From a candidate division FCPU426 bacterium (GTDB taxonomy: Bacteria > Oederibacteriota > JAJYGY01 > DAIDJD01): a DNA stretch of 64,000 nucleotides. Made by a program: the position numbers and the translations under genes. Below, piece after piece: positions 4,796 to 58,798 of this stretch. The DNA is taken from positions 17,588-81,587 of the forward strand of contig DAIDJD010000092.1 of assembly GCA_027451505.1 (NCBI GenBank), in the 5' to 3' direction. The notes below the pieces were generated by a model. That model did no database searches. It was given only the letters and a program-made list of their open reading frames with translations, and was not told the DNA's origin. Within the stretch, counting starts at the first letter, position 1; each line of letters begins with the position of its first letter.

Positions 4796-4824
4796 TTGTA
4801 TGGATTATGGCAAAGGGTTATACT
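4796..4824 (+). promoter_or_regulatory. candidate sigma-70 promoter TTGTAT-N17-TATACT in an AT-rich island upstream of the sigma-54 activator gene
   Basis: hexamers read directly at 4796-4801 and 4819-4824 with 17-nt spacer; local GC far below the window average. Confidence 0.35.
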
Positions 4825-4867
4825 GAATTAGTTTCAAAATGGAACACCAAAACGTCTTTGATAGGCC

Positions 4868-5980
4868 ATGACCCAAACCATCACCTCCATCGTCCCTGTG
4901 CCCCCCGCTTCGGCATCCCTTGGGGCCGAAGCGGGACTGCCCGTGTTGGGGCAGTCCCCGGGCATCAAGCGCGTGCTGAACCTGGCCCAAAAGGTGGCCC
5001 CCACGGACAGCCCCGTGCTCATCACCGGCGAGACCGGCACGGGCAAGGAATTGATCGCCCGGATCATCCACGCGGCCTCCCGACGGGCCAGGGGACCGTT
5101 CGTGGCGGTCAACGCCGGGGCCATCCCTGAGAATCTGCAGGAGAGCGAACTCTTCGGCCACCACAAGGGCGCCTTCACCGGGGCCGTGGCGGACCGCCGC
5201 GGCCTCTTCGAGGAGGCCGATGGCGGCACGTTGTTCCTCGACGAAATCGGCGACGCCAGCCCTGGGCTGCAGGTGAGGCTCCTGCGGGTCCTTCAGAACG
5301 GCAGCATCCGTCGTGTGGGTGAGAGCGTGGAGAGGCCGGTGGACGTTCGCTTGGTCGCCGCGACCAACCGGGTCCTGGAGCGCATGGCCGAACGAGGGGA
5401 GTTTAGGGAGGACCTGTTTTTCCGGCTCAACGTCGTGCACCTGCATCTGCCGCCGCTTCGGGAGCGGGGCGAGGACTTGGACCTCCTCCTGCGGGCCAAT
5501 CTGGCGCGGTTCGCCGAACGCCTGCGCAAGGAGGTGCGGGGATTCACCGCGGCGGCCTGGGACGCCCTGCGCGCCTACTTCTACCCCGGCAACATCCGCG
5601 AATTGGAGAACATCGTCCACCACGCCGTTCTCATGGCCGAGGGTCCCGAGGTGGAACTGTCCGACCTGCCGCCATACCTTAAGGCGAGGCTGGCCCTGCC
5701 CGCTCCGGAGCCGGGTCCCTGGAGGGAGGTCGCGCCTTTGGAGGTGCCCCGGGAGGCCTGGGGCAGGCCGGGTTCGCGTCCGGCCGCCTCCGAGTCCGCG
5801 TACGTGGCGCCCCACGTGGATCTGGGGGACGGCTTCCTGAGCATCTCGGACATGGAAAAGCAGCTCATCTCCGCCACCCTGGGAAGGCTCAAAGGGAACC
5901 AGAGCGTGGCCGCCCGGAAGCTGGGTGTGAGCCGTTCCACGCTGTGGCGCAAGATGAAGGAATATGGACTCCAGGCCTGA
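4868..5980 (+). CDS. sigma-54-dependent transcriptional activator (bacterial enhancer-binding protein) lacking an N-terminal sensory/receiver domain (PspF/HrpS-like architecture)
   Basis: AAA+ sigma-54 interaction domain with GETGTGKE Walker A, ESELFGHHKGAFTGA (GAFTGA loop), C-terminal Fis-type HTH QSVAARKLGVSRSTLWRKMKEYG; only about 40 aa precede the AAA+ core. Confidence 0.85.
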   Translation: MTQTITSIVPVPPASASLGAEAGLPVLGQSPGIKRVLNLAQKVAPTDSPVLITGETGTGKELIARIIHAASRRARGPFVAVNAGAIPENLQESELFGHHKGAFTGAVADRRGLFEEADGGTLFLDEIGDASPGLQVRLLRVLQNGSIRRVGESVERPVDVRLVAATNRVLERMAERGEFREDLFFRLNVVHLHLPPLRERGEDLDLLLRANLARFAERLRKEVRGFTAAAWDALRAYFYPGNIRELENIVHHAVLMAEGPEVELSDLPPYLKARLALPAPEPGPWREVAPLEVPREAWGRPGSRPAASESAYVAPHVDLGDGFLSISDMEKQLISATLGRLKGNQSVAARKLGVSRSTLWRKMKEYGLQA

Positions 5981-7229
5981 GGAAGGCATCGCCCGGGGAG
6001 GCCTGACCCTGGCCCGGGCCAGGGAAGCGCTCAAAGATTGGCAGGGCCATATGCGGCGGGGGGCCGCCTTGCCCAGCGAGGACGAATACGTCGCGGCTTT
6101 GGCCCTGGTGCCGTGGCTGCCCCAGCCCGGCGTCTATCTGGCCCGCACGCTGCGCGCCTTCGCCGATTTCTGTTCGGCCCAGGGCCGGCTGGACGACGCC
6201 GTTTCCCTTTTGGCGCGCATCGCCGAGGGGCCCGGGCGCAAGAGCGAGGTTTTCTGGCGCGACTACGCCGTGCTGCTGTTCCGCCAGGCGCTCAAGCGCC
6301 TGGCCGCCGGGAGGGTGGCCCAGTCCAATGAATCCCTGGGGCGGGCCGCGGCGCTGTTGAGGGGCCCGGCCGCCCTTCCCGAGGTCTGGAACGCGGCCTG
6401 GGAAGGCTATTCCGAAATGGCGCTTTGGTTCGAGCGCGCCGGCGATGCGCTTCCGGCGCGCCTGCACGCGGAACACGCGCTGGAGTACGCCCAGCGCTGC
6501 GGCCGCCGAGAAGAGGCCCTGGAGTGGCTTCGCCGCCTGGCCCAAGCGGCCCAGCACGGCAGGGGCGCCTTCGCCGCCTTGGACTGGCTGCGCCGCATGC
6601 ACGCCTTGGGGCGCGAAGGTTGGACAGGAGCCGGGGCATTCGCGGTGCGCAGCGCCGTGGGTTTGGCCCAGGCCGAGGCCGCCTTGGGACGGGAGGCGGG
6701 CATGGACGCCATCTTCCACGAGGTGGAGACTTGGCTGCGGGAGCCTCCGTCGGACCTCCTGGCCTTGGCCGATTTGAACTTGGCCTGGGGCCTGGTCTTG
6801 GGACTTGAACGGGGCCGGGAACGCCTCGAACAGGCCCATCGGTTGCGTTCCACCGCGTTGGGTGAAGACCATCCCAAGACCCTCGAAGCCTTCCGGGCCC
6901 TGGGAGGATGGCGCCAAGAGGACACTGGACCTTCCCCAGGGACGGACTCCGGCCCACGCGAATGGGACGGTGGCGCAAGATTCGAAGGACCCAAAGACTC
7001 CGGGGGGGAATCCCAGGAATCCGAATTGAAGCGACTCCATCGGCGTTTGGCGCGGCTTTGCCACCCGGACGCCGGGTTGGATGACGCATCCGAGAGCGAA
7101 ATCACTTGGCGCCACGAAACCATGATCCGGGTGAATCGGGCGGCCGAGTCCGGGAACCTATTTTTACTGCGCGCGCTGTTGGATGAGGCGCTTTCCAGGA
7201 TGGGCACCGGCAAACAAGTCCCGCTTTGA
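5964..7229 (+). CDS. hypothetical helical (TPR-like) protein with a C-terminal J-domain-like segment
   Basis: C-terminus LKRLHRRLARLCHPDAG...ITWRHETMIRVNRAAESGN resembles J-domain helices II-III with the HPD tripeptide; start overlaps the activator gene stop by 17 nt; GC falls in the last ~400 nt. Confidence 0.5.
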   Translation: MDSRPEEGIARGGLTLARAREALKDWQGHMRRGAALPSEDEYVAALALVPWLPQPGVYLARTLRAFADFCSAQGRLDDAVSLLARIAEGPGRKSEVFWRDYAVLLFRQALKRLAAGRVAQSNESLGRAAALLRGPAALPEVWNAAWEGYSEMALWFERAGDALPARLHAEHALEYAQRCGRREEALEWLRRLAQAAQHGRGAFAALDWLRRMHALGREGWTGAGAFAVRSAVGLAQAEAALGREAGMDAIFHEVETWLREPPSDLLALADLNLAWGLVLGLERGRERLEQAHRLRSTALGEDHPKTLEAFRALGGWRQEDTGPSPGTDSGPREWDGGARFEGPKDSGGESQESELKRLHRRLARLCHPDAGLDDASESEITWRHETMIRVNRAAESGNLFLLRALLDEALSRMGTGKQVPL

Positions 7230-7236
7230 GGTGAGC

Positions 7237-7632
7237 ATGGCTATCAAACCTTGGTCTTTGGGAACTCTGATTCGCTTGCGTTGCCCAGTGTGCGGCGAAG
7301 ACACGTTCAAAACCGGGTGGTTCCAAACGGCTTCGGCCTGTAGAGCCTGCGCCACGGTTTTTGAGGAAGAGGATGGGTTTTATGCTGGAGCGATCTATCC
7401 TATGTATGGAATGATCGCAGGGTTGGGAGCTTTGGGCATGCTCCTGGGATGGCTTTTGGGGCTTTCATTTGAAAAAAGCCTATTTATGGACGGATTTATT
7501 ATTATTTTGGCATCTCCGTGGCTTTTCCTGTATTCAAGAATACTTTTTTTGTATACCCATCATAGATTTTTCAAAAACTTCGATGGTCCTGCTGAGTCGG
7601 CAAGCGAGGTAAAGGTAAAAAGAGAAGGATAA
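7237..7632 (+). CDS. DUF983-family zinc-ribbon membrane protein
   Basis: CPVCGE...CRAC zinc ribbon followed by DGxxF and two hydrophobic helices, matching the DUF983 pattern; the 3' half is strongly AT-rich. Confidence 0.5.
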   Translation: MAIKPWSLGTLIRLRCPVCGEDTFKTGWFQTASACRACATVFEEEDGFYAGAIYPMYGMIAGLGALGMLLGWLLGLSFEKSLFMDGFIIILASPWLFLYSRILFLYTHHRFFKNFDGPAESASEVKVKREG

Positions 7633-7644
7633 GGGTGGGTGGCC

Positions 7645-7695
7645 GGGTTCAAGCGCGGCGATGGATGGTGCGCAGGGGTTCAAGGGGTTCTTGAA
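7645..7695 (+). promoter_or_regulatory. candidate enhancer (UAS): direct repeat GGGTTCAAG x2, and inverted repeat TTCAAG-gggtt-CTTGAA at 7679-7695
   Basis: repeats read directly; centred about 125 bp upstream of the sigma-54-type promoter at 7813-7828. Confidence 0.3.
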
Positions 7696-7812
7696 ATCCC
7701 GGGGGCGCATATCTTTTCGTTTTTAAACACTTCATTGCGGTTGTTTGATTTTAGATCCATCTTTGCTTCGAAATGAAATTAACAAAAATACATATAACCT
7801 TTTAAATATAAA

Positions 7813-7828
7813 CGGCACGGTCCTTGCG
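7813..7828 (+). promoter_or_regulatory. candidate sigma-54 (-24/-12) promoter CGGCACG-gtcc-TTGCG upstream of dnaK
   Basis: GG and GC dinucleotides separated by exactly 10 nt, with extended match to TGGCACG-N4-TTGCW; about 50 nt upstream of the dnaK start; preceded by an AT-rich tract. Confidence 0.4.
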
Positions 7829-7880
7829 TGATATCCAGGCATACCAGTTCCATTAAGGATTCGAAAGCGAGGCGACATTC

Positions 7881-9800
7881 ATGGGAAAAATCATCGGCAT
7901 TGATCTGGGGACCACCAATTCCTGCGTGGCCATCATGGAAGGCGGGGAACCCAAGGTCATCAACAATTCCGAAGGCAATAGGACCACTCCTTCGGTGGTG
8001 GGTTTCGCCAAGGACGGTTCCCGGCTGGTGGGCCAGGCCGCCAAGAGGCAGGCCGTCACCAATCCCGAGAATACCGTGTTCTCGGCCAAACGGTTCATCG
8101 GTCGGCGCTTCAACGAGGTCCAGGCCGAGGCCAAGCGCATGCCTTTCAAGGTGGTCGCCGCCGACAACGGGGACGCCGCCATCGAGATCAAGGACAAGCG
8201 CTACGCCCCCCCTGAGATCTCGGCCATGGTGCTGCAGAAGCTGAAGGCCGACGCCGAGGCCTACCTCGGGGAGCCCGTGACCCAGGCCGTGATCACCGTG
8301 CCGGCCTACTTCAACGACAGCCAGCGCCAGGCCACCAAGGACGCCGGAAAGATCGCCGGCCTCGAGGTCCTGCGCATCATCAACGAGCCCACCGCGGCGT
8401 CCCTGGCCTACGGCTTGGACAAGAAGGGCAAGAACGAAAAGATCGCGGTCTACGACCTGGGCGGGGGCACCTTCGACGTCTCCATCCTGGAGATCGGGGA
8501 TGGCGTCTTCGAGGTGCGCGCCACCAACGGGGACACGCACCTGGGCGGCGACGACTACGACGAGGTCGTGCTCGAGTGGCTGGCCTCCGAGTTCCAGAAG
8601 GCCGAGGGCATCGATCTGCGCAAGGACCGCATGGCCCTGCAACGCCTGAAGGAGGCCTCGGAAAAGGCCAAGATCGAGCTCTCCAGCGCCGCCTCCACGG
8701 ACATCAACTTGCCGTTCATCACCGCCGACGCCACCGGGCCCAAGCACCTCAACGTGAGCCTGAGCAGGGCCAAGCTGGAGCAGTTGGTCGCGGGGCTGAC
8801 CGACCGCACCAAGGGCCCCTGCCAGCAGGCCCTCAAGGACGCCGGCCTTTCGGCCTCGGAGATCGACGAGGTGGTGCTGGTGGGCGGCATGACGCGCATG
8901 CCCAGCGTGGTGCAATACGTCAAGGAGCTCTTCGGCAAGCAGCCCCACCAGGGGGTGAACCCCGACGAAGTGGTGGCCGTGGGCGCCGCCATCCAGGCCG
9001 GCGTGCTCAAGGGCGAGGTCAAGGACGTGCTGCTGCTGGACGTCACCCCGTTGAGCCTGGGCATCGAAACCGAGGGTCGGGTGTTCACGAAACTGATCGA
9101 GCGCAACACCACGGTGCCGACCCGCAAGAGCCAGGTCTTCAGCACGGCCAGCGATAGCCAGCCCTCGGTGGAGGTGCATGTGCTGCAGGGCGAGCGCCCC
9201 ATGGCCTCGGACAACAAGACCATAGGACGCTTCCACCTCGACGGGATCCCGCCCGCGCCCCGGGGCGTACCCCAGATCGAGGTGACCTTCGACATCGACG
9301 CCAACGGCATCCTGGCGGTGAGCGCCAAGGACCTGGGCACGGGCAAGGAGCAGAAGATCACCATCACCGCCAGCTCCGGGCTCGCCAAAGACGAGGTGGA
9401 GCGCCTCGTCCAGGAGGCCAAGGCGCACGAGGCGGAGGACAAGAAGCGCCGTGAGGCGGCCGAGGTCCGCAACCACGCCGAGAGTCTGGCCCATTCCGTC
9501 GAGAAGACGCTCAAGGACCTCGGCGACAAGGTTCCCGAGGATAAGCGCAAGGACCTGGAGGCCCAGGCCGCCGCGCTGCGCGAGGAGCTCAAGAACGAGT
9601 CCGACGCGGAGGCGCTCAAGCGCAAGGCCGACGCGTTGGCGGAGGCCATGGCGGCGGTCTCCGAGGAGTTGTACAAGAACGCCAAGCCCGAAGCCGCTCC
9701 CGGCGGCCCGGATGGCGGGCCGGCCCAAGCCGGCGCCGCGGCCGGGGCCAAGACCGTCGACGCGGATTTCGAGGTCGTGGACGAGAAGAAAAAGGACTGA
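7881..9800 (+). CDS. dnaK: molecular chaperone DnaK (Hsp70)
   Basis: [25 protein letters not shown], full Hsp70 ATPase and substrate-binding domains; RBS GAGG upstream. Confidence 0.97.
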
Positions 9801-9833
9801 ACACCATCACCGCAGCAAGGAGGAACAACACGT

Positions 9834-10124
9834 ATGAAACTGCGTCCGCTCAACGATAAGATCGTGGTCAAGCCGATCGAGGCCGAGGAAACCGTGAAGG
9901 GGGGCATCATCATCCCCGACAACGCCAAGGAGAAGCCCCAGCAGGCCGAGGTGGTCGCCGTCGGCCCCGGAAAGCTCCTTGAAAACGGCAACCGGGTCGT
10001 CCCCGGGGTCAAGCCGGGGGAACGGGTGCTTTACTCCAAGTACAGCGGCAGCGAGTTCAAGGTCGGCGGCGACGAGCTTCTGGTCCTGGACGAGGGCGAC
10101 ATCCTGGCCGTCGTCGAGAAGTAG
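9834..10124 (+). CDS. groES: co-chaperonin GroES
   Basis: 96 aa, [13 protein letters not shown]...GGIIIPD canonical Hsp10; only 33 nt after dnaK. Confidence 0.95.
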
Positions 10125-11843
<1,719 letters not shown>

Positions 11844-11852
11844 GAGTCCCCT

Positions 11853-11891
11853 GGGGGACCCGCCGGATTGCCGGCGGGTCCCCTTCATTTT
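11853..11891 (+). terminator. rho-independent terminator after groEL
   Basis: perfect 13-bp stem GGGGACCCGCCGG / CCGGCGGGTCCCC with ATTG loop, followed by TTCATTTT. Confidence 0.8.
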
Positions 11892-16724: not shown

Positions 16725-17606
16725 GTGGCGGGGGGGGTGGCCGATCTCTACGCGGCGTTGGGCGTCCCCGAATCCGCCTCGGCCGAGGAGATCAAGAGGG
16801 CCTACCGGGCCCTGGCCAAGCGGTGGCACCCCGACGCCAACCCCGGCGACCGGGGTGCGGAGGAGCGCTTCAAGCAGATCGGCCAGGCCTACGAGATCCT
16901 GTCCGACCCCGACAAGCGGCGCCGCTACGACGCCCTGCGCCGTTCCCCGGTTCCCGAACCGGAGACCGGGGCGCCCCCTTGGGCCTCCTCCGGAGGGGCG
17001 GCCGCCTGGGGAGGCTCCGCCAGCGTGGAGGATTTGTTCTCCATGTTTTTCGGCTCCGGGGAGGCCGGGCCGGGGCCCTTCGGGGTGCCGGACCAGGGAG
17101 GGGACTTCGACAGCGAAGTCTGGGTCTCCTTCGAGGACGCGGCCCTCGGGAATCCGGTGACGGTGCGCCTGGAGGGAAGGCCCCAGCCGCTGAAGCTCAA
17201 CCTGCCGCCCGGAGCGGAAAGCGGGCTGCGGATGAGGCTCGCGGGCCAAGGGGCGCCCCGGCGGCGCGGGCGGCGGGGCGACCTCTTTCTCACGCTCAAG
17301 GTGCGCCCCTCGGAGCGTTTCAGCCGCAGGGGCCTGGACATCCACGGATTCGTGGAGGTGAACCTCGCGCAGGCCCTGTTGGGCGCGCGGGTCCAAGCCC
17401 CCACCCTGCGGGGAAGCGCGCGCGTCGGGGTGCCCGCCGGGACCCAGCCCGGGACCCTGCTGCGCCTTGCGGGCCAGGGCATCGAGGCCGAGGGCCGGCG
17501 GGGAGACCATTTTGTTGAGGTGCGGGTGAAGCTGCCCACCGACCTCGACGAGCCGGAAAAAGCGGCGATCTTGGGCATGGCCCGTCGCCGCGGCTGGGCG
17601 CTTTGA
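16725..17606 (+). CDS. DnaJ-class co-chaperone without zinc-finger domain (CbpA-like)
   Basis: J domain DLYAALGV...[13 protein letters not shown]...[14 protein letters not shown], Gly-rich linker, DnaJ C-terminal domains, no CxxCxGxG repeats. Confidence 0.8.
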
Positions 17607-33512: not shown

Positions 33513-33887
33513 TCAGCGCCCCAGGCGCGCCCAGAGGTCGGCCGCGTTGAGCCCCAGGGAGAGCAGCGCCAGGCCGGCGCTGAAGAACGTGACCGCCTTG
33601 TCGATCCTGGCGGTGTCCACGGGCCTTCGGGTCAGCTTGCGGATGAGGAAAGGGATGTAGGGCCCGGAACTGTCTTTTCCCAGCCCCAGACGGCGGCGCA
33701 CGGCCCATTGCGCCTCGGTAAGGGGGCAGGCCCCGAACACGATCCAGGCCGCCAGGGTCAGGGCGATGAGGCCCAGGTGCCAGGGGCGGAGGGTCCTGGG
33801 GATCCACCCCACCACGATGAACCCCACAATGCCCAAGTGCAATATATGTCCCAGCACGTTCAGGATCCGGTAGCCCCACACACGCAT
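33513..33887 (-). CDS. hypothetical small membrane protein (3-4 TM helices)
   Basis: only plausible minus-strand ORF in the recA-asmA gap; hydrophobic helices; convergent with recA. Confidence 0.45.
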   Translation of the reverse strand: MRVWGYRILNVLGHILHLGIVGFIVVGWIPRTLRPWHLGLIALTLAAWIVFGACPLTEAQWAVRRRLGLGKDSSGPYIPFLIRKLTRRPVDTARIDKAVTFFSAGLALLSLGLNAADLWARLGR

Positions 33888-55073: not shown

Positions 55074-55362
55074 GGAATTCCTTGGAATCGGAGGGGACCA
55101 TGGCGGCCGGCCGAAGGCGCATTTTAACAGAGCGGGCCCCCAGGTCAACAAACGCCGGAGCCCCGGCCGCGGCGTCGACCGTCGGTGGCCCGGGAGGCCC
55201 ACCTTGCGCCGCGGGGGCGTCCCGGGGCCGGTTCACGCCACCGCCTTGTGTTCTCCTTCGGTTTGGTCTATCGTTTCCACGGAATACCCGCCCCGCTCAA
55301 GGCCCAGGCGCACCGTCGGCCCGGGAGTTGGGGGCCCCACCTTTACTCACGTAGGAGCCGAC

Positions 55363-55410
55363 ATGGCCCGTTCCCGTCAAAAGCGCAAGACCGTCAACAA
55401 GAAGAAGTAG
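55363..55410 (+). CDS. candidate 15-aa highly basic small ORF (MARSRQKRKTVNKKK)
   Basis: strong RBS AGGAG 6 nt upstream; stop codon 2 nt before the ATG of the next gene; no homology claim. Confidence 0.15.
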   Translation: MARSRQKRKTVNKKK

Positions 55411-55412
55411 CC

Positions 55413-56093
55413 ATGAACCCCGGCCCGAACCCTACCAACCCTCGGCCCGGCTCGGCGCCGGTCCTTGTTCTCGCCCTGGCGGCCGCGGCGTTGGGCTTGG
55501 CCGCCTGCGGCACCGGCGTTCGCCAGAGCCCGGCCGCCTCCGAGGACACCGGCACCGTGCGCGCCGTCCAGGCCGCGAACTCCACGTACACCACCCGCTC
55601 CGGGGACACGCCTGTGTCGGTGGCCGCGCGTCCCGACGTGTATTCCGACCCGGAACTGTGGCCCCTGCTCAAGGAGGCCAACGCCGAGGTGCTCAAGGGC
55701 ATCTCCCCCTATGGTCCCATCCCGGCGGACACGGTCCTGGTGATCCCCCGCGGGGTGTCCCAGGAGCGCCTGGAGGCCGCCCGCGCCGAGGCCCGCAGGG
55801 TCGCCTTCGAACGCAAGCGCAAGGGGGAAGTCCGGCGGCCCACGGCTGAAGCCGCCCCGCTTTCACCGACGGTGTCCGCGGCCCAGGCGTCCCCGGTCGC
55901 GTCCGCGGCGTCCCCATCCGCAGCGCACGCGGCGGCATCCACCACGGGAGCCGCCTCCCCGGCCTCACCGACGACGAAGGCCAAGGCCGCTGGACGCGGC
56001 CTGCCCCTCACCCTGCTCATCGTGTTGGTGTTGGCCGCCCTCGCGGCGGTGCTGGTGGTGTTCTTCAGGCGGGATCGCAAGGACTTCGACTGA
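55413..56093 (+). CDS. LysM-domain lipoprotein with C-terminal membrane anchor
   Basis: lipobox LAAC; LysM segment YTTRSGDTPVSVA...VLVIP; Ala/Ser/Pro-rich linker; C-terminal hydrophobic helix. Confidence 0.6.
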   Translation: MNPGPNPTNPRPGSAPVLVLALAAAALGLAACGTGVRQSPAASEDTGTVRAVQAANSTYTTRSGDTPVSVAARPDVYSDPELWPLLKEANAEVLKGISPYGPIPADTVLVIPRGVSQERLEAARAEARRVAFERKRKGEVRRPTAEAAPLSPTVSAAQASPVASAASPSAAHAAASTTGAASPASPTTKAKAAGRGLPLTLLIVLVLAALAAVLVVFFRRDRKDFD

Positions 56094-56123: not shown

Positions 56124-57656
56124 ATGTCCTCGCTCTCGCCTAATCTTCAACTCCGGCAGCAGCAGCGGTTGGTGATGACGCCGCAGCTCAAGCAGGCGTT
56201 GAAGATCCTCCAGCTCAACACCGGCGAGCTGGGCGACCTCATCGAGAACGAACTGGCCGAAAACCCGATGCTGGAGGAGATCGGATCCGAGGCCGAAGCG
56301 GCCGAGGCGGGGCCGTCCTCGGAATCCGAATCCGGATCGGCGGGCGAGGCCGACGAGGCGTCCCGGGCGGCTTCGCCCGAATCCGAGGCCGCCCCCGAGG
56401 GGCCGGTGGAGGCCCCGGTCGAGGCCACCCGGGAACTGGAATTGGAGGGGCCCGGGGCCGAACTCGACGACTGGGCCCAGTACCTCGATGACGACGGCAC
56501 CGACTACAGTTTGGCCCGTTCCGAGCGCGAGGACGGCGAAGAAAAGCCCGGATTCGAGAGCTTCCTTTCCCGGGCCGAGACCCTCCAGGAACACCTGTTG
56601 CGGCAGCTCGAGTCCGAGGAACTCCCCCCCGAGCAGCGGAGACTGTGCGAGGAGATCATCGGTCGGGTCGACGAGCGGGGCTACCTTGACGAGGGCCTCG
56701 AGGGGATAGGGCGCGACTGCGGCGCCGGGGCGCCCGAGCTGTTCCATGCCTTGCGCCGTGTCCAGTCCCTGGACCCTCCGGGGGTCGCCGCCCGGGACCT
56801 GCGCGAGTGCCTCCTGCTCCAACTTGAGGCTCTGGGTGCCAAGGGCGGGGCCGCGTGGGACGCGTTGGAAAGCCATTACGACGATGTGGTGCACCGGCGC
56901 TGGGACCGCGTCGCCAAGGCGTTGCGGCTCGATCCCGGGGAGGCGGCCCGGGCCGAGGCCCTGGTCGCTTCCCTGGAGCCCATACCCGGCCGGCCCTACG
57001 GGGGGGCCCCCAACGCGGGGGTGCGGGTGGACGCGGTGGTGGAGAAGGATCCGCTCACCGGCTCCTACCGGGTGGTCATCGCCGATGGCGGCCTGCCCCG
57101 CCTCGGCTTCAACGCCTACTACCGCCGCCTGATCAAATCCGGCGGGGCCTCGTTGGCCGATCCCGAGACCCGGGCCTGGCTCAAGGACCGCCAGCAGTCC
57201 GCGTTGTGGCTCATGCGCGGCATCCAGCAGCGCCACCGCACGCTGCGTCGGGTTTTGGAGGAAATCGTCCAGGAACAGAAGGGCTTCCTGGACAGCGGCC
57301 CGGCGGCGTTCCGTCCGCTGACGCTCAAGGACATCGCCGGCCGCACGGGCCTGCACGAAAGCACCATCTCCAGGGTTTGCACCGGGAAGTACGTGCAGAC
57401 GCCCCGCGGGGTCTTCGAACTCAAGTTTTTTTTCGCCTCCTCCCTGCGCACGGACGACGGCGAGACCAGCTCCCGCGCGGTCAAGGACCGGCTGCGGGAG
57501 CTCATCGGCGAGGAGGACGAGGGCCAGGCGGTGCGGTCGGACCTGGAATTGGCCGGGATCCTGAGCCAAGAGGGTGTGCGCATCGCCCGGCGCACGGTGG
57601 CCAAATATCGCGAGGAGTTGCGCATCCCCCCGGCCCATTTGCGTCGCAAAAGCTGA
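56124..57656 (+). CDS. rpoN: RNA polymerase sigma-54 factor
   Basis: region I LQLRQQQRLVMTPQLKQALKILQL; C-terminal RpoN box ARRTVAKYRE. Confidence 0.95.
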   Translation: MSSLSPNLQLRQQQRLVMTPQLKQALKILQLNTGELGDLIENELAENPMLEEIGSEAEAAEAGPSSESESGSAGEADEASRAASPESEAAPEGPVEAPVEATRELELEGPGAELDDWAQYLDDDGTDYSLARSEREDGEEKPGFESFLSRAETLQEHLLRQLESEELPPEQRRLCEEIIGRVDERGYLDEGLEGIGRDCGAGAPELFHALRRVQSLDPPGVAARDLRECLLLQLEALGAKGGAAWDALESHYDDVVHRRWDRVAKALRLDPGEAARAEALVASLEPIPGRPYGGAPNAGVRVDAVVEKDPLTGSYRVVIADGGLPRLGFNAYYRRLIKSGGASLADPETRAWLKDRQQSALWLMRGIQQRHRTLRRVLEEIVQEQKGFLDSGPAAFRPLTLKDIAGRTGLHESTISRVCTGKYVQTPRGVFELKFFFASSLRTDDGETSSRAVKDRLRELIGEEDEGQAVRSDLELAGILSQEGVRIARRTVAKYREELRIPPAHLRRKS

Positions 57657-57688
57657 GCCCTTCGCTCGCCCGCGCCGGCGGCACCCAA

Positions 57689-57770
57689 TTGACAGTGCCC
57701 GGGTTCCCGTGGTAGTTTCGCTTAGGGAAAAATCAATAAAATCAAGGCTTTTCATAAAAGTCGGGAACCC
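57689..57770 (+). promoter_or_regulatory. candidate internal promoter (TTGACA-N18-TAGTTT) flanked by 9-bp inverted repeat GGGTTCCCG...CGGGAACCC around an AT-rich tract upstream of hpf
   Basis: TTGACA at 57689-57694; IR arms at 57701-57709 and 57762-57770. Confidence 0.25.
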
Positions 57771-57783
57771 ACGGGGAGGCGCC

Positions 57784-58323
57784 ATGCAGATCCAGATCGC
57801 CGGGCAGCACGTCGAGGTGACGCCCGGTTTGCGCCAGTTCATCGCGGCCAAATTTGAGCGGCTCGGGGACATGCATCCCAGCGCGCGCAAGGCGGCCGTG
57901 GTGCTATCGGTGGAGAAGTACCGGCACACCGCCGAAATCCACCTCCACGTCGACGGCGTGGAATTGAGCGCCAAAAAGACCACCAAGGACATGTACGCCA
58001 GCCTGGAACAGGCCTTGGAGGCGATCGAGCAGCAGGCCGACAAGCGCAAGGACCGGCTGCGCACCAGCGGCAGCCTGCGGCGGGGCAAAGCCAAGGTCGA
58101 GCGCCTGCGGGCCCGGGGCGGGGCGGCCGACGCGGAGACGGCGCCTCCCCCCAAAGTGGCGCGCCTGCGGCCCTCGACGCCCCGTTCCCTGACCCTGGAG
58201 GAGGCCGTGGAGGCCCTGGAGGCTTCGGGCAACGGGTTCGTGCTGTTCAAGGAGCCCGGACGTTCCGGGACCCGCCTGCTCGTCCGGCGCCCGGACGCGA
58301 GCTACGCGCTCACCGAGGTCTGA
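57784..58323 (+). CDS. hpf: ribosome hibernation promoting factor (long form)
   Basis: MQIQIAGQHVEVTPGLRQFI...; C-terminal dimerisation extension; canonical position after rpoN. Confidence 0.9.
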   Translation: MQIQIAGQHVEVTPGLRQFIAAKFERLGDMHPSARKAAVVLSVEKYRHTAEIHLHVDGVELSAKKTTKDMYASLEQALEAIEQQADKRKDRLRTSGSLRRGKAKVERLRARGGAADAETAPPPKVARLRPSTPRSLTLEEAVEALEASGNGFVLFKEPGRSGTRLLVRRPDASYALTEV

Positions 58324-58333
58324 GGAGGCGGGA

Positions 58334-58798
58334 ATGCGTATCTCGGAATTCCTGGTCCCGGAGGCGGTGCTGGTCGACCTTAAGGCGACCAACAAGCGGG
58401 ACGTGCTCATCGAACTGCTCCAGCCCCTTGCCAAGGCCGGCCGCATCGCCGACGCCAAAAAAATGGTGGAGGTGCTCCTTGAGCGCGAGGAGCTGGGTTC
58501 CACGGGGATCGGCGGACGCATCGCCATCCCCCACGGCAAGGCGGCCCAGGTCCGGGAACTCTCGGCCGGCCTGGGCGTCTCCCGCGCCGGGATCCCGTTC
58601 GACGCGCTGGATGGGGAACCGGTGAACCTCTTCATCGCCCTGGTGGCCCCGGAGGGGTCGGCGGGCCTGCACCTTAAGGCCCTGGCCCGCGTCTCCAGCC
58701 TGCTCAAGGATCGGGCCTTCAAGAAGGCCTTGATGGGCGCCCAGACCCGCGAGGACGTTTTGCGCCTCATCGAGGCCGAAGAGAAGGACAAGGGCTAG
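58334..58798 (+). CDS. ptsN: PTS EIIA-Ntr (fructose/mannitol-type IIA)
   Basis: phosphorylatable His context RIAIPHGK; 154 aa; canonical position after hpf. Confidence 0.85.
   Translation: MRISEFLVPEAVLVDLKATNKRDVLIELLQPLAKAGRIADAKKMVEVLLEREELGSTGIGGRIAIPHGKAAQVRELSAGLGVSRAGIPFDALDGEPVNLFIALVAPEGSAGLHLKALARVSSLLKDRAFKKALMGAQTREDVLRLIEAEEKDKG

Follow-up and report, generated by a model that had tools for sequence, protein, structure and literature searches.

Heat-shock control in bacteria is usually described as the work of sigma-32 or of a repressor (HrcA, HspR, CtsR). Here we describe a locus in which the main chaperone operon, dnaK-groES-groEL, is preceded by a predicted sigma-54 promoter and, further upstream, by the gene for a sigma-54 enhancer-binding protein (EBP). 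It lies on contig DAIDJD010000092.1 from a candidate division FCPU426 bacterium, of which one stretch of 64,000 nucleotides (hereafter the window) was analysed. In Flavobacterium psychrophilum, sigma-54 promoters with mapped starts precede groES-groEL, dnaK, grpE-dnaJ, htpG, lon and clpB (PMC9723704), and a matrix-based survey found chaperone COGs enriched among the genes predicted to be under sigma-54 control in Bacteroidota and Planctomycetota (PMC12316311). Because the Flavobacterium promoters have already been mapped, the principle of sigma-54 chaperone control is not new, and a first, sequence-only reading of this DNA overstated the case when it called such control unusual. A literature search, which did not cover all journals, found no dedicated activator, operator or J-domain partner described for such a regulon. 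Like the Bacteroidota promoters, the one described here puts core folding genes behind a -24/-12 element and not behind a sigma-32 promoter or CIRCE/HrcA. Unlike them, it belongs to another lineage, which is uncultured (relatives carry the label candidate division FCPU426), dnaK, groES and groEL form one operon, and the genes of a presumptive activator and of a J-like partner, together with a presumptive operator, adjoin the target; in the papers found the activator is unnamed. The interest of the locus is this adjacent activator/operator/J-like module.

Three groups of known systems invite comparison. PspF of E. coli consists of an AAA+ domain and a helix-turn-helix (HTH) domain only, is controlled in trans by a partner, and has a binding site that overlaps its own promoter. 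The EBP described here likewise has no sensor, so that control in trans is expected, and a dyad at its own promoter suggests negative autoregulation. However, it is not a PspF orthologue, there is no pspA-like gene, the candidate partner is a tetratricopeptide repeat (TPR)/J-like protein, and the target would be cytoplasmic chaperones instead of membrane-stress proteins. Chaperone-titration loops are known for sigma-32 with DnaK/DnaJ (E. coli), HspR with DnaK (Streptomyces) and HrcA with GroEL (Bacillus). In the logic proposed below, as in these loops, the regulator would be kept inactive by a chaperone of its own regulon for as long as unfolded proteins do not compete for that chaperone. The difference is that this regulator would be of the sigma-54 AAA+ type, with a J-like adaptor from the same operon recruiting the chaperone. 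Finally, E. coli ibpB and Myxococcus xanthus lonD, the latter with the HsfA/HsfB two-component system, are heat-inducible genes driven by sigma-54 and an EBP, as would be the case here. Those are single accessory genes and HsfA has a receiver, whereas here the central Hsp70/Hsp60 operon is concerned and the EBP has none.

Our main reading, to which we give a probability of roughly 0.7, is that dnaK-groES-groEL is transcribed from a sigma-54 promoter under the control of the adjacent EBP and a 15-bp dyad (Table 1). The promoter site had been proposed by the sequence-only reading as CGGCACG-N4-TTGCG, with GG-N10-GC spacing, in an AT-rich tract about 50 nt upstream of dnaK. All of this was correct: the GC of the -12 element lies 54 nt 5' of the ATG, and the tract upstream of dnaK has 39-45% GC compared with 70% across the window. 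The exact core GGCACG-N4-TTGC occurs a single time within the window, and the site agrees with the extended consensus TGGCACG-N4-TTGCW at 14/16 positions. Within the 248 nt upstream of dnaK (+ strand), such a match is expected by chance with P ~0.03 when scored with an approximate generic sigma-54 weight matrix after the compilation of Barrios et al., and with P 0.002 when the core pattern is used. With the 16-mer consensus and up to 2 mismatches, 5 matches were found in the window versus 8.7 expected. The best match to the generic matrix in the window, TGGGACATATATTGCA at 33838-33853 (- strand, 14.3 bits), lies just inside the start of an open reading frame (ORF; 33513-33887, minus strand) and was judged to be due to chance. 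Because the match upstream of dnaK is not beyond chance over the whole window, the motif score alone was dropped as evidence, and the case for the promoter rests on its context and on the comparison with relatives. As to context, sigma-54 machinery is encoded in the window itself by rpoN, with all three domains, and by the EBP gene, which lies 1.9 kb upstream of the promoter. In sigma-54 promoters the GC of the -12 element is usually 11-13 nt from the transcription start, and the predicted start was placed accordingly.

The comparison comprised 17 related loci with readable dnaK upstream DNA, whose EBPs are 50-80% identical; one further contig, P0049, contributed gene order only. In 17/17 loci TGGCA[CT]-N5-TTGC[AT] was found 60-82 nt 5' of the dnaK start, with identical spacing and diverged flanks. 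The alignment columns GGCA and TTGC are invariant while the bases around them vary, which is strong evidence for selection on a sigma-54 promoter; the most deviant version among the compared loci is that of the window itself. The sequence-only reading had expected two motifs to recur in relatives. Its box did, as GGCA[CT]-N5-TTGC in all 17 loci, but a TTCAAG palindrome further upstream has no counterpart. Hence 7813-7828 is very probably a functional sigma-54 promoter of dnaK-groES-groEL, and transcription of the operon would be expected to depend on rpoN.

An unbiased Gibbs sampler was applied to the 136 nt preceding a conserved AT-rich box in 16 loci, with 12 shuffled sets as the null. It recovered a 15-bp dyad, GCTYCAWTTTGRRAC, in 16/16 dnaK upstream regions, with 15.3 bits compared with 10.2 +/- 0.2 in the shuffles. 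Relative to the GG, the dyads cluster in two ranges, -58 to -71 and -93 to -117; counted from the predicted start this is about -85 to -140, a usual distance for enhancers. As a conserved and dyad-symmetric site that recurs upstream of the promoter, GCTYCAWTTTGRRAC has the features of a bacterial enhancer. A leave-one-out matrix gave the copy at 7743-7757 a score of 11.3 bits (local P 0.013), and its offset from the GG (-71) is similar to that in L081, L090, L091, L103, L094 and L095 (-66 to -69). Where the second, weaker site lies (7765-7779), the alignment has GCTTCAAAATTAAAC / GTTTCAAAAATAAAT in L088 and L086.

By a wide margin, the best dyad in the window is not at dnaK but at 4831-4845, 23 nt before the start codon of the EBP gene. 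It scored 19.8 bits with a matrix made only from the dnaK sites of other genomes, and a match as strong was found in 0.1% of shuffled windows. A sigma-70-like promoter precedes it. This pair fails the -35 threshold of the consensus promoter scan, and the promoter call therefore rests on conservation: L081, L083, L085, L086, L093, L096, L100, L103 and L104 all have a TTGnnn-17-TATA[GC]T pair and a near-perfect dyad heading the activator operon, 6-11 nt downstream of the pair. A dyad at +1 to +15 of a sigma-70-type promoter is in the position of a repressor site. Judging by PspF, the most likely role of 4831-4845 is negative autoregulation of the activator operon.

The EBP consists of an AAA+ domain (residues 27-192), an AAA lid and HTH_8 (326-366), with only 26 residues before the AAA+ domain. 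It contains the GAFTGA motif (...GHHKGAFTGA...) and the Walker A motif GETGTGK. It has neither a sensory nor a receiver domain at its N-terminus, which is the architecture of the PspF/HrpR/HrpS type. The NCBIfam model for PspF (TIGR02974) was covered over its whole length with 271.3 bits, below the cut-off of 443.55, and no equivalog model was reached. Thus the activator at 4868-5980 named by the sequence-only reading is indeed an AAA+ protein with GAFTGA and HTH_8, and it is syntenic with dnaK across the family. As no second DNA-binding protein is encoded in the conserved cluster, the dyad would most simply be bound by the EBP, which would repress its own operon and activate dnaK. We consider the EBP to be probably the activator of the dnaK promoter, and lean, with somewhat less assurance, towards the 15-bp dyad as its binding site.

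This assignment gains weight from the history of the locus. About 60 orthologues of the EBP at 53-80% identity were found, all metagenomic, and a near-identical cluster-mate of one of them carries the label candidate division FCPU426. In every sufficiently long contig the EBP gene is followed by dnaK-groES-groEL and then by an ABC transporter, and the linkage is kept down to ~50% identity. The genes between EBP and dnaK vary (the TPR protein, a 116-aa DUF983-like protein, a 2'-5' RNA ligase, a 505-525-aa secreted FN3/beta-barrel-like protein), and in one contig dnaK directly follows the EBP gene. In the FCPU426-labelled L104, a PhyH-like and a Rieske oxygenase gene (8642-10640) were inserted on the opposite strand between the activator operon and dnaK; despite the insertion, the sigma-54 promoter, the dyads on the dnaK side and the dyad of the activator operon are kept. 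A scan of species-representative genomes for the EBP found only paralogues of <=51% identity, with no dnaK nearby except in L016. These paralogues were judged not to be part of the system; a strict sigma-54 pattern was found nearby only at a glnB-like gene.

Some further features of the relatives were seen in passing. A perfect palindrome, ACAGCGCGCGCTGT, occurs right after the 2'-5' RNA ligase gene and before dnaK in L081 (~11379-11392), L090, L091, L100 and L103. Its 8-mers were found in 5 loci versus 0.01 expected; the window has neither this palindrome nor the RNA ligase gene. Among the more distant relatives, a protein with a signal peptide is additionally encoded in the activator operon (L100 8061-9638, L101 7992-9521, L102 4087-5604, L103 3699-5249). 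It combines an FN3 domain with a C-terminal region that, as in an outer-membrane beta-barrel, ends in F/Y, and a gene for a TMEM260-like membrane protein is often found upstream. The FN3/beta-barrel-like and TMEM260-like genes may point to a connection of the circuit with the envelope.

According to our main reading, the EBP would bind the GCTYCAWTTTGRRAC dyad ~40-120 bp upstream of the -24 element, in the window at 7743-7757 and perhaps at 7765-7779. From there it would contact the sigma-54 holoenzyme, leading to an open complex at the promoter and to transcription of dnaK-groES-groEL. Binding to the near-perfect dyad over the start of the activator operon would allow the EBP to repress its own operon. 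This operon probably ends at an intrinsic terminator. In an RNA fold of 7633-7735 a long interrupted stem was predicted (z -2.16), and the best single hairpin, 7664-7713 (50 nt, dG -21.1 kcal/mol), is followed by TTTTCGTTTTT. The tail TTTTCGTTTTTA directly 3' of the hairpin has 9 T in 12 positions, and the hairpin begins 32 nt after the stop codon at 7632; the terminator scan likewise detected a shorter form of it. A stable hairpin, a U-tract and a location downstream of a stop codon are the marks of an intrinsic terminator. If this hairpin and its T-tract (7664-7724) end the activator operon, dnaK would depend on its own promoter.

An EBP without a sensory domain needs control in trans. The best candidate for the controller is the TPR/J-like protein encoded directly downstream. 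In the AlphaFold2 model (pLDDT 89) it has TPR helices at residues 16-312, a disordered linker and three C-terminal helices. The J-like module comprises residues ~351-416. Its segment ELKRLHRRLARLCHPD...RHELMVRVNxAAExGDL has the HPD motif (nt 7062-7070) after a basic helix II, and H367-P368-D369 is invariant in 31/31 homologues. When a profile of the segment was searched against the PDB, the top matches were all J-domains (best E 5.8e-4). An hhalign comparison with nine J-domains, which covered helix II, HPD and helix III, gave a probability of 85% (E 6e-6). The NCBI pipeline names two of the homologues 'J domain-containing protein'. Fold searches did not retrieve J-domains. Against this identity, helix I is missing and the isolated module is modelled as a plain three-helix bundle. 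The data are consistent with a J-domain but not conclusive. In the proposed mechanism, the co-translated TPR/J-like protein would bring DnaK to the EBP and hold it inactive, and unfolded proteins would titrate DnaK away, whereby the EBP would be released. This feedback of DnaK and a J-domain on the activator is tentative. The same is true of the complete scheme, a self-contained sigma-54 heat-shock circuit of four parts (an activator without a sensor, autorepression, a hold by DnaK through the TPR/J adaptor, and release by titration), which we put forward as a possibility and not as the expected outcome. A canonical J-domain protein of 293 aa is encoded elsewhere in the window (16725-17606, + strand), without an AT-rich upstream region or a sigma-54 motif.

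Several points speak against the circuit as described. The promoter of the window deviates from the consensus by C for T at -26 and G for A/T at -11. The matrix scan suggested by the sequence-only reading did find it, at 11.5 bits, but only as the fifth-ranking site, and ~4.9 equal or better matches are expected per shuffled 64 kb. The dyad copy at 7743-7757 is weak as well, with 1.8 such matches expected per shuffled window. A TACAAT-like box upstream of the -24 element could give sigma-54-independent expression. As to the partner protein, the Pfam DnaJ model matched 30/31 homologues, all below threshold (14.8 bits versus a cut-off of 27.8; best member E 0.0015), and in two relatives no TPR-J gene lies between EBP and dnaK. 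Outside the 64-kb window there may be a second copy of dnaK/groEL, rpoH or hrcA. Finally, the organisms are uncultured, and the circuit is a prediction from sequence.

The box just mentioned leads to the alternative that survives best and that is compatible with our main reading. It is part of a conserved AT-rich element between the dyads and the -24 element, whose k-mers ACAAATAT and ATATACAA were found in 6/15 loci compared with 0.2 expected. The AT box may be a sigma-70-type -10 element (TACAAT) for basal expression, or a DNA-bending site; an IHF consensus, WATCAANNNNTTR, was not seen in it by eye. Dual promoters are common at chaperone operons. Hence a weak sigma-70-type promoter could provide basal expression and the sigma-54 promoter stress induction, in line with the conservation of both the AT box and the -24/-12 element. 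Yet there is no conserved -35 partner, the box of the window is degenerate, and no sigma-70 pair for dnaK passed the consensus scan. Tandem promoters are thus conceivable, but we would not expect them.

Less probable is a real sigma-54 promoter whose dyad is the operator of another, unlinked regulator, e. g. a heat-shock repressor, while the EBP serves a different target. The dyad over the start of the EBP operon behaves like a repressor operator, and its right half, TGGAAC, may recall the sites of other regulators. However, no DNA-binding protein other than the EBP is encoded in the conserved cluster, and a 15-bp inverted repeat suits a dimeric HTH of the Fis type. Moreover, EBP, dyads and sigma-54 promoter have travelled together through a protein divergence of 50-80% and through rearrangement of the intervening genes. 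An unlinked regulator is therefore unlikely.

More doubtful still is that the -24/-12 match is unused and that dnaK is transcribed by a sigma-70-family holoenzyme (e. g. with the TACAAT-like box as -10) or by read-through from upstream. A silent sigma-54 promoter would not supply the basal expression that essential chaperones require. The unexceptional score of the generic matrix over the window and the conserved TACAAT-bearing box 20-33 nt upstream of the GG in relatives would also fit. But without selection it is hard to explain why GGCA and TTGC are invariant at the exact spacing in 17/17 loci. In the window the box reads TACATA, without the invariant final T; moreover, the region follows the probable terminator, and neither a sigma-70 nor a sigma-32 consensus pair was found. 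The sequence-only reading had already stated that there is no CIRCE element and no acceptable sigma-32 pair. Dedicated searches bore this out: no CIRCE/HrcA operator (TTAGCACTC-N9-GAGTGCTAA) was found in the 64-kb window at <=3 mismatches, and no sigma-32-like CTTGAA/CCCCATNT pair in 7633-7880.

The sequence-only reading had sought the binding site of the activator further upstream, in two copies of GGGTTCAAG and an inverted repeat, TTCAAG (7679-84)-N5-CTTGAA (7690-95) with the loop GGGTT, all of which are present. These repeats (7645-7695, ~150 bp upstream of the start) lie at a distance typical of an enhancer, and their half-site TTCAA/TTGAA resembles the k-mers TTGAAA/TTTCAA enriched in relatives (11/15 loci versus 2.3 expected), but an enhancer here is very unlikely since the palindrome forms the apex of the terminator-like hairpin with its T-tract, the relatives have no repeat similar to it in sequence or position, the leave-one-out dyad matrix found no match in 7645-7700, and unbiased motif discovery picked 7743-7757 instead. 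For the first GGGTTCAAG copy, 7645-7653, there is likewise no match to the dyad matrix and no conserved counterpart in relatives.

Table 1. Features of the window that are discussed in the text (positions in the 64-kb stretch; operons, promoters and regulatory sites are predictions).
Feature	Position	Strand	Remarks
Sigma-70-like promoter of the activator operon	4796-4824	+	TTGTAT-17 nt-TATACT; layout conserved in relatives
Near-perfect dyad, candidate autoregulatory operator	4831-4845		GTTTCAAAATGGAAC; ~+1 to +15 of the activator-operon promoter
Sigma-54 enhancer-binding protein (EBP)	4868-5980	+	370 aa; Pfam Sigma54_activat E 1.8e-69, HTH_8 E 1.5e-14
TPR protein with C-terminal J-domain-like module	5964-7229	+	421 aa; start overlaps the EBP stop by 17 nt
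DUF983-like small zinc-ribbon/membrane protein	7183-7632	+	weak DUF983 match; last gene of the activator operon
Direct repeat	7645-7653 and 7676-7684	+	GGGTTCAAG; repeat family D3
Hairpin and T-tract, probable intrinsic terminator of the activator operon	7664-7724	+	hairpin 7664-7713, T-tract 7714-7724; holds the inverted repeat 7679-7695 and the second GGGTTCAAG
Dyad, candidate activator site (upstream activating sequence)	7743-7757		GTTTGATTTTAGATC; centred ~-89 from the predicted start
Second, weaker dyad-like site	7765-7779		GCTTCGAAATGAAAT; 7.7 bits, minus strand; weak evidence
Conserved AT-rich box	7782-7795	+	ACAAAAATACATAT (relatives ACAAATATACAAT); between the dyads and the -24 element, 20-33 nt upstream of GG
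Sigma-54 -24/-12 element (predicted)	7813-7828	+	CGGCACGgtccTTGCG; GG 7814-15, GC 7826-27, 10 nt between
Predicted transcription start	7838-7840	+	from the spacing to the -12 GC; 5' untranslated region ~42 nt
dnaK (Hsp70)	7881-9800	+	Pfam HSP70 E 3.8e-272
groES	9834-10124	+	Pfam Cpn10 E 6.5e-32
groEL	10194-11843	+	Pfam Cpn60_TCP1 E 1.1e-76
Terminator after groEL	11853-11884	+	14-bp stem, 12 GC pairs; closes the inferred dnaK-groES-groEL operon
rpoN (sigma-54), complete	56124-57656	+	Pfam Sigma54_AID, Sigma54_CBD, Sigma54_DBD; RpoN box ARRTVAKYR

As regards the remaining features of the window, no terminator was called on the + strand between dnaK and groEL by the terminator scan. Together with hpf and an EIIA(Ntr)-like gene downstream of it, rpoN forms the classic cluster (56124-58798, + strand); the ORF upstream of it (55185-56093), where lptB is usual, has no Pfam match. 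The true start of the DUF983-like gene is probably the ATG at 7237, and 116-aa orthologues are found at the same position in relatives. The 3' half of this gene (7336-7646) has 29% GC versus 70% in the genome and contains two weak dyad-like sites (7377, 7461).

Across the whole window no Rfam match was found. In 13/17 predicted 5' untranslated regions (L081, L083, L085, L086, L089-L091, L094, L095, L100, L101, L103, L016) a short stem-loop of 4-7 bp lies 5-12 nt before the Shine-Dalgarno sequence of dnaK; that of the window (7849-7861) is the weakest, with 3 bp. The stems vary by clade (GTCC/GGAC, GGCC/GGCC, GCTCCC/GGGAGC, CGGC/GCCG, GCCCC/GGGGC) in a way that looks compensatory. RNAalifold on a MAFFT alignment of these regions gave no consensus structure, although the folds of the single sequences show a hairpin. 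Roles in mRNA stability or translation control are possibilities.

The papers found on sigma-54 chaperone promoters name neither the activator nor the way in which it senses protein damage. The locus described here sets side by side, and conserved within a lineage, a promoter, an activator without a sensor, a probable operator at both the target and the activator's own gene, and a J-like partner. As the candidate parts adjoin each other and are conserved, the question can be put to the test in E. coli with a reconstituted circuit, despite the lack of cultures. If the proposed circuit is true, the logic of sigma-32 and DnaK would have been rebuilt on an EBP, and this EBP would be a candidate for the type of regulator that stands behind sigma-54 chaperone regulons.

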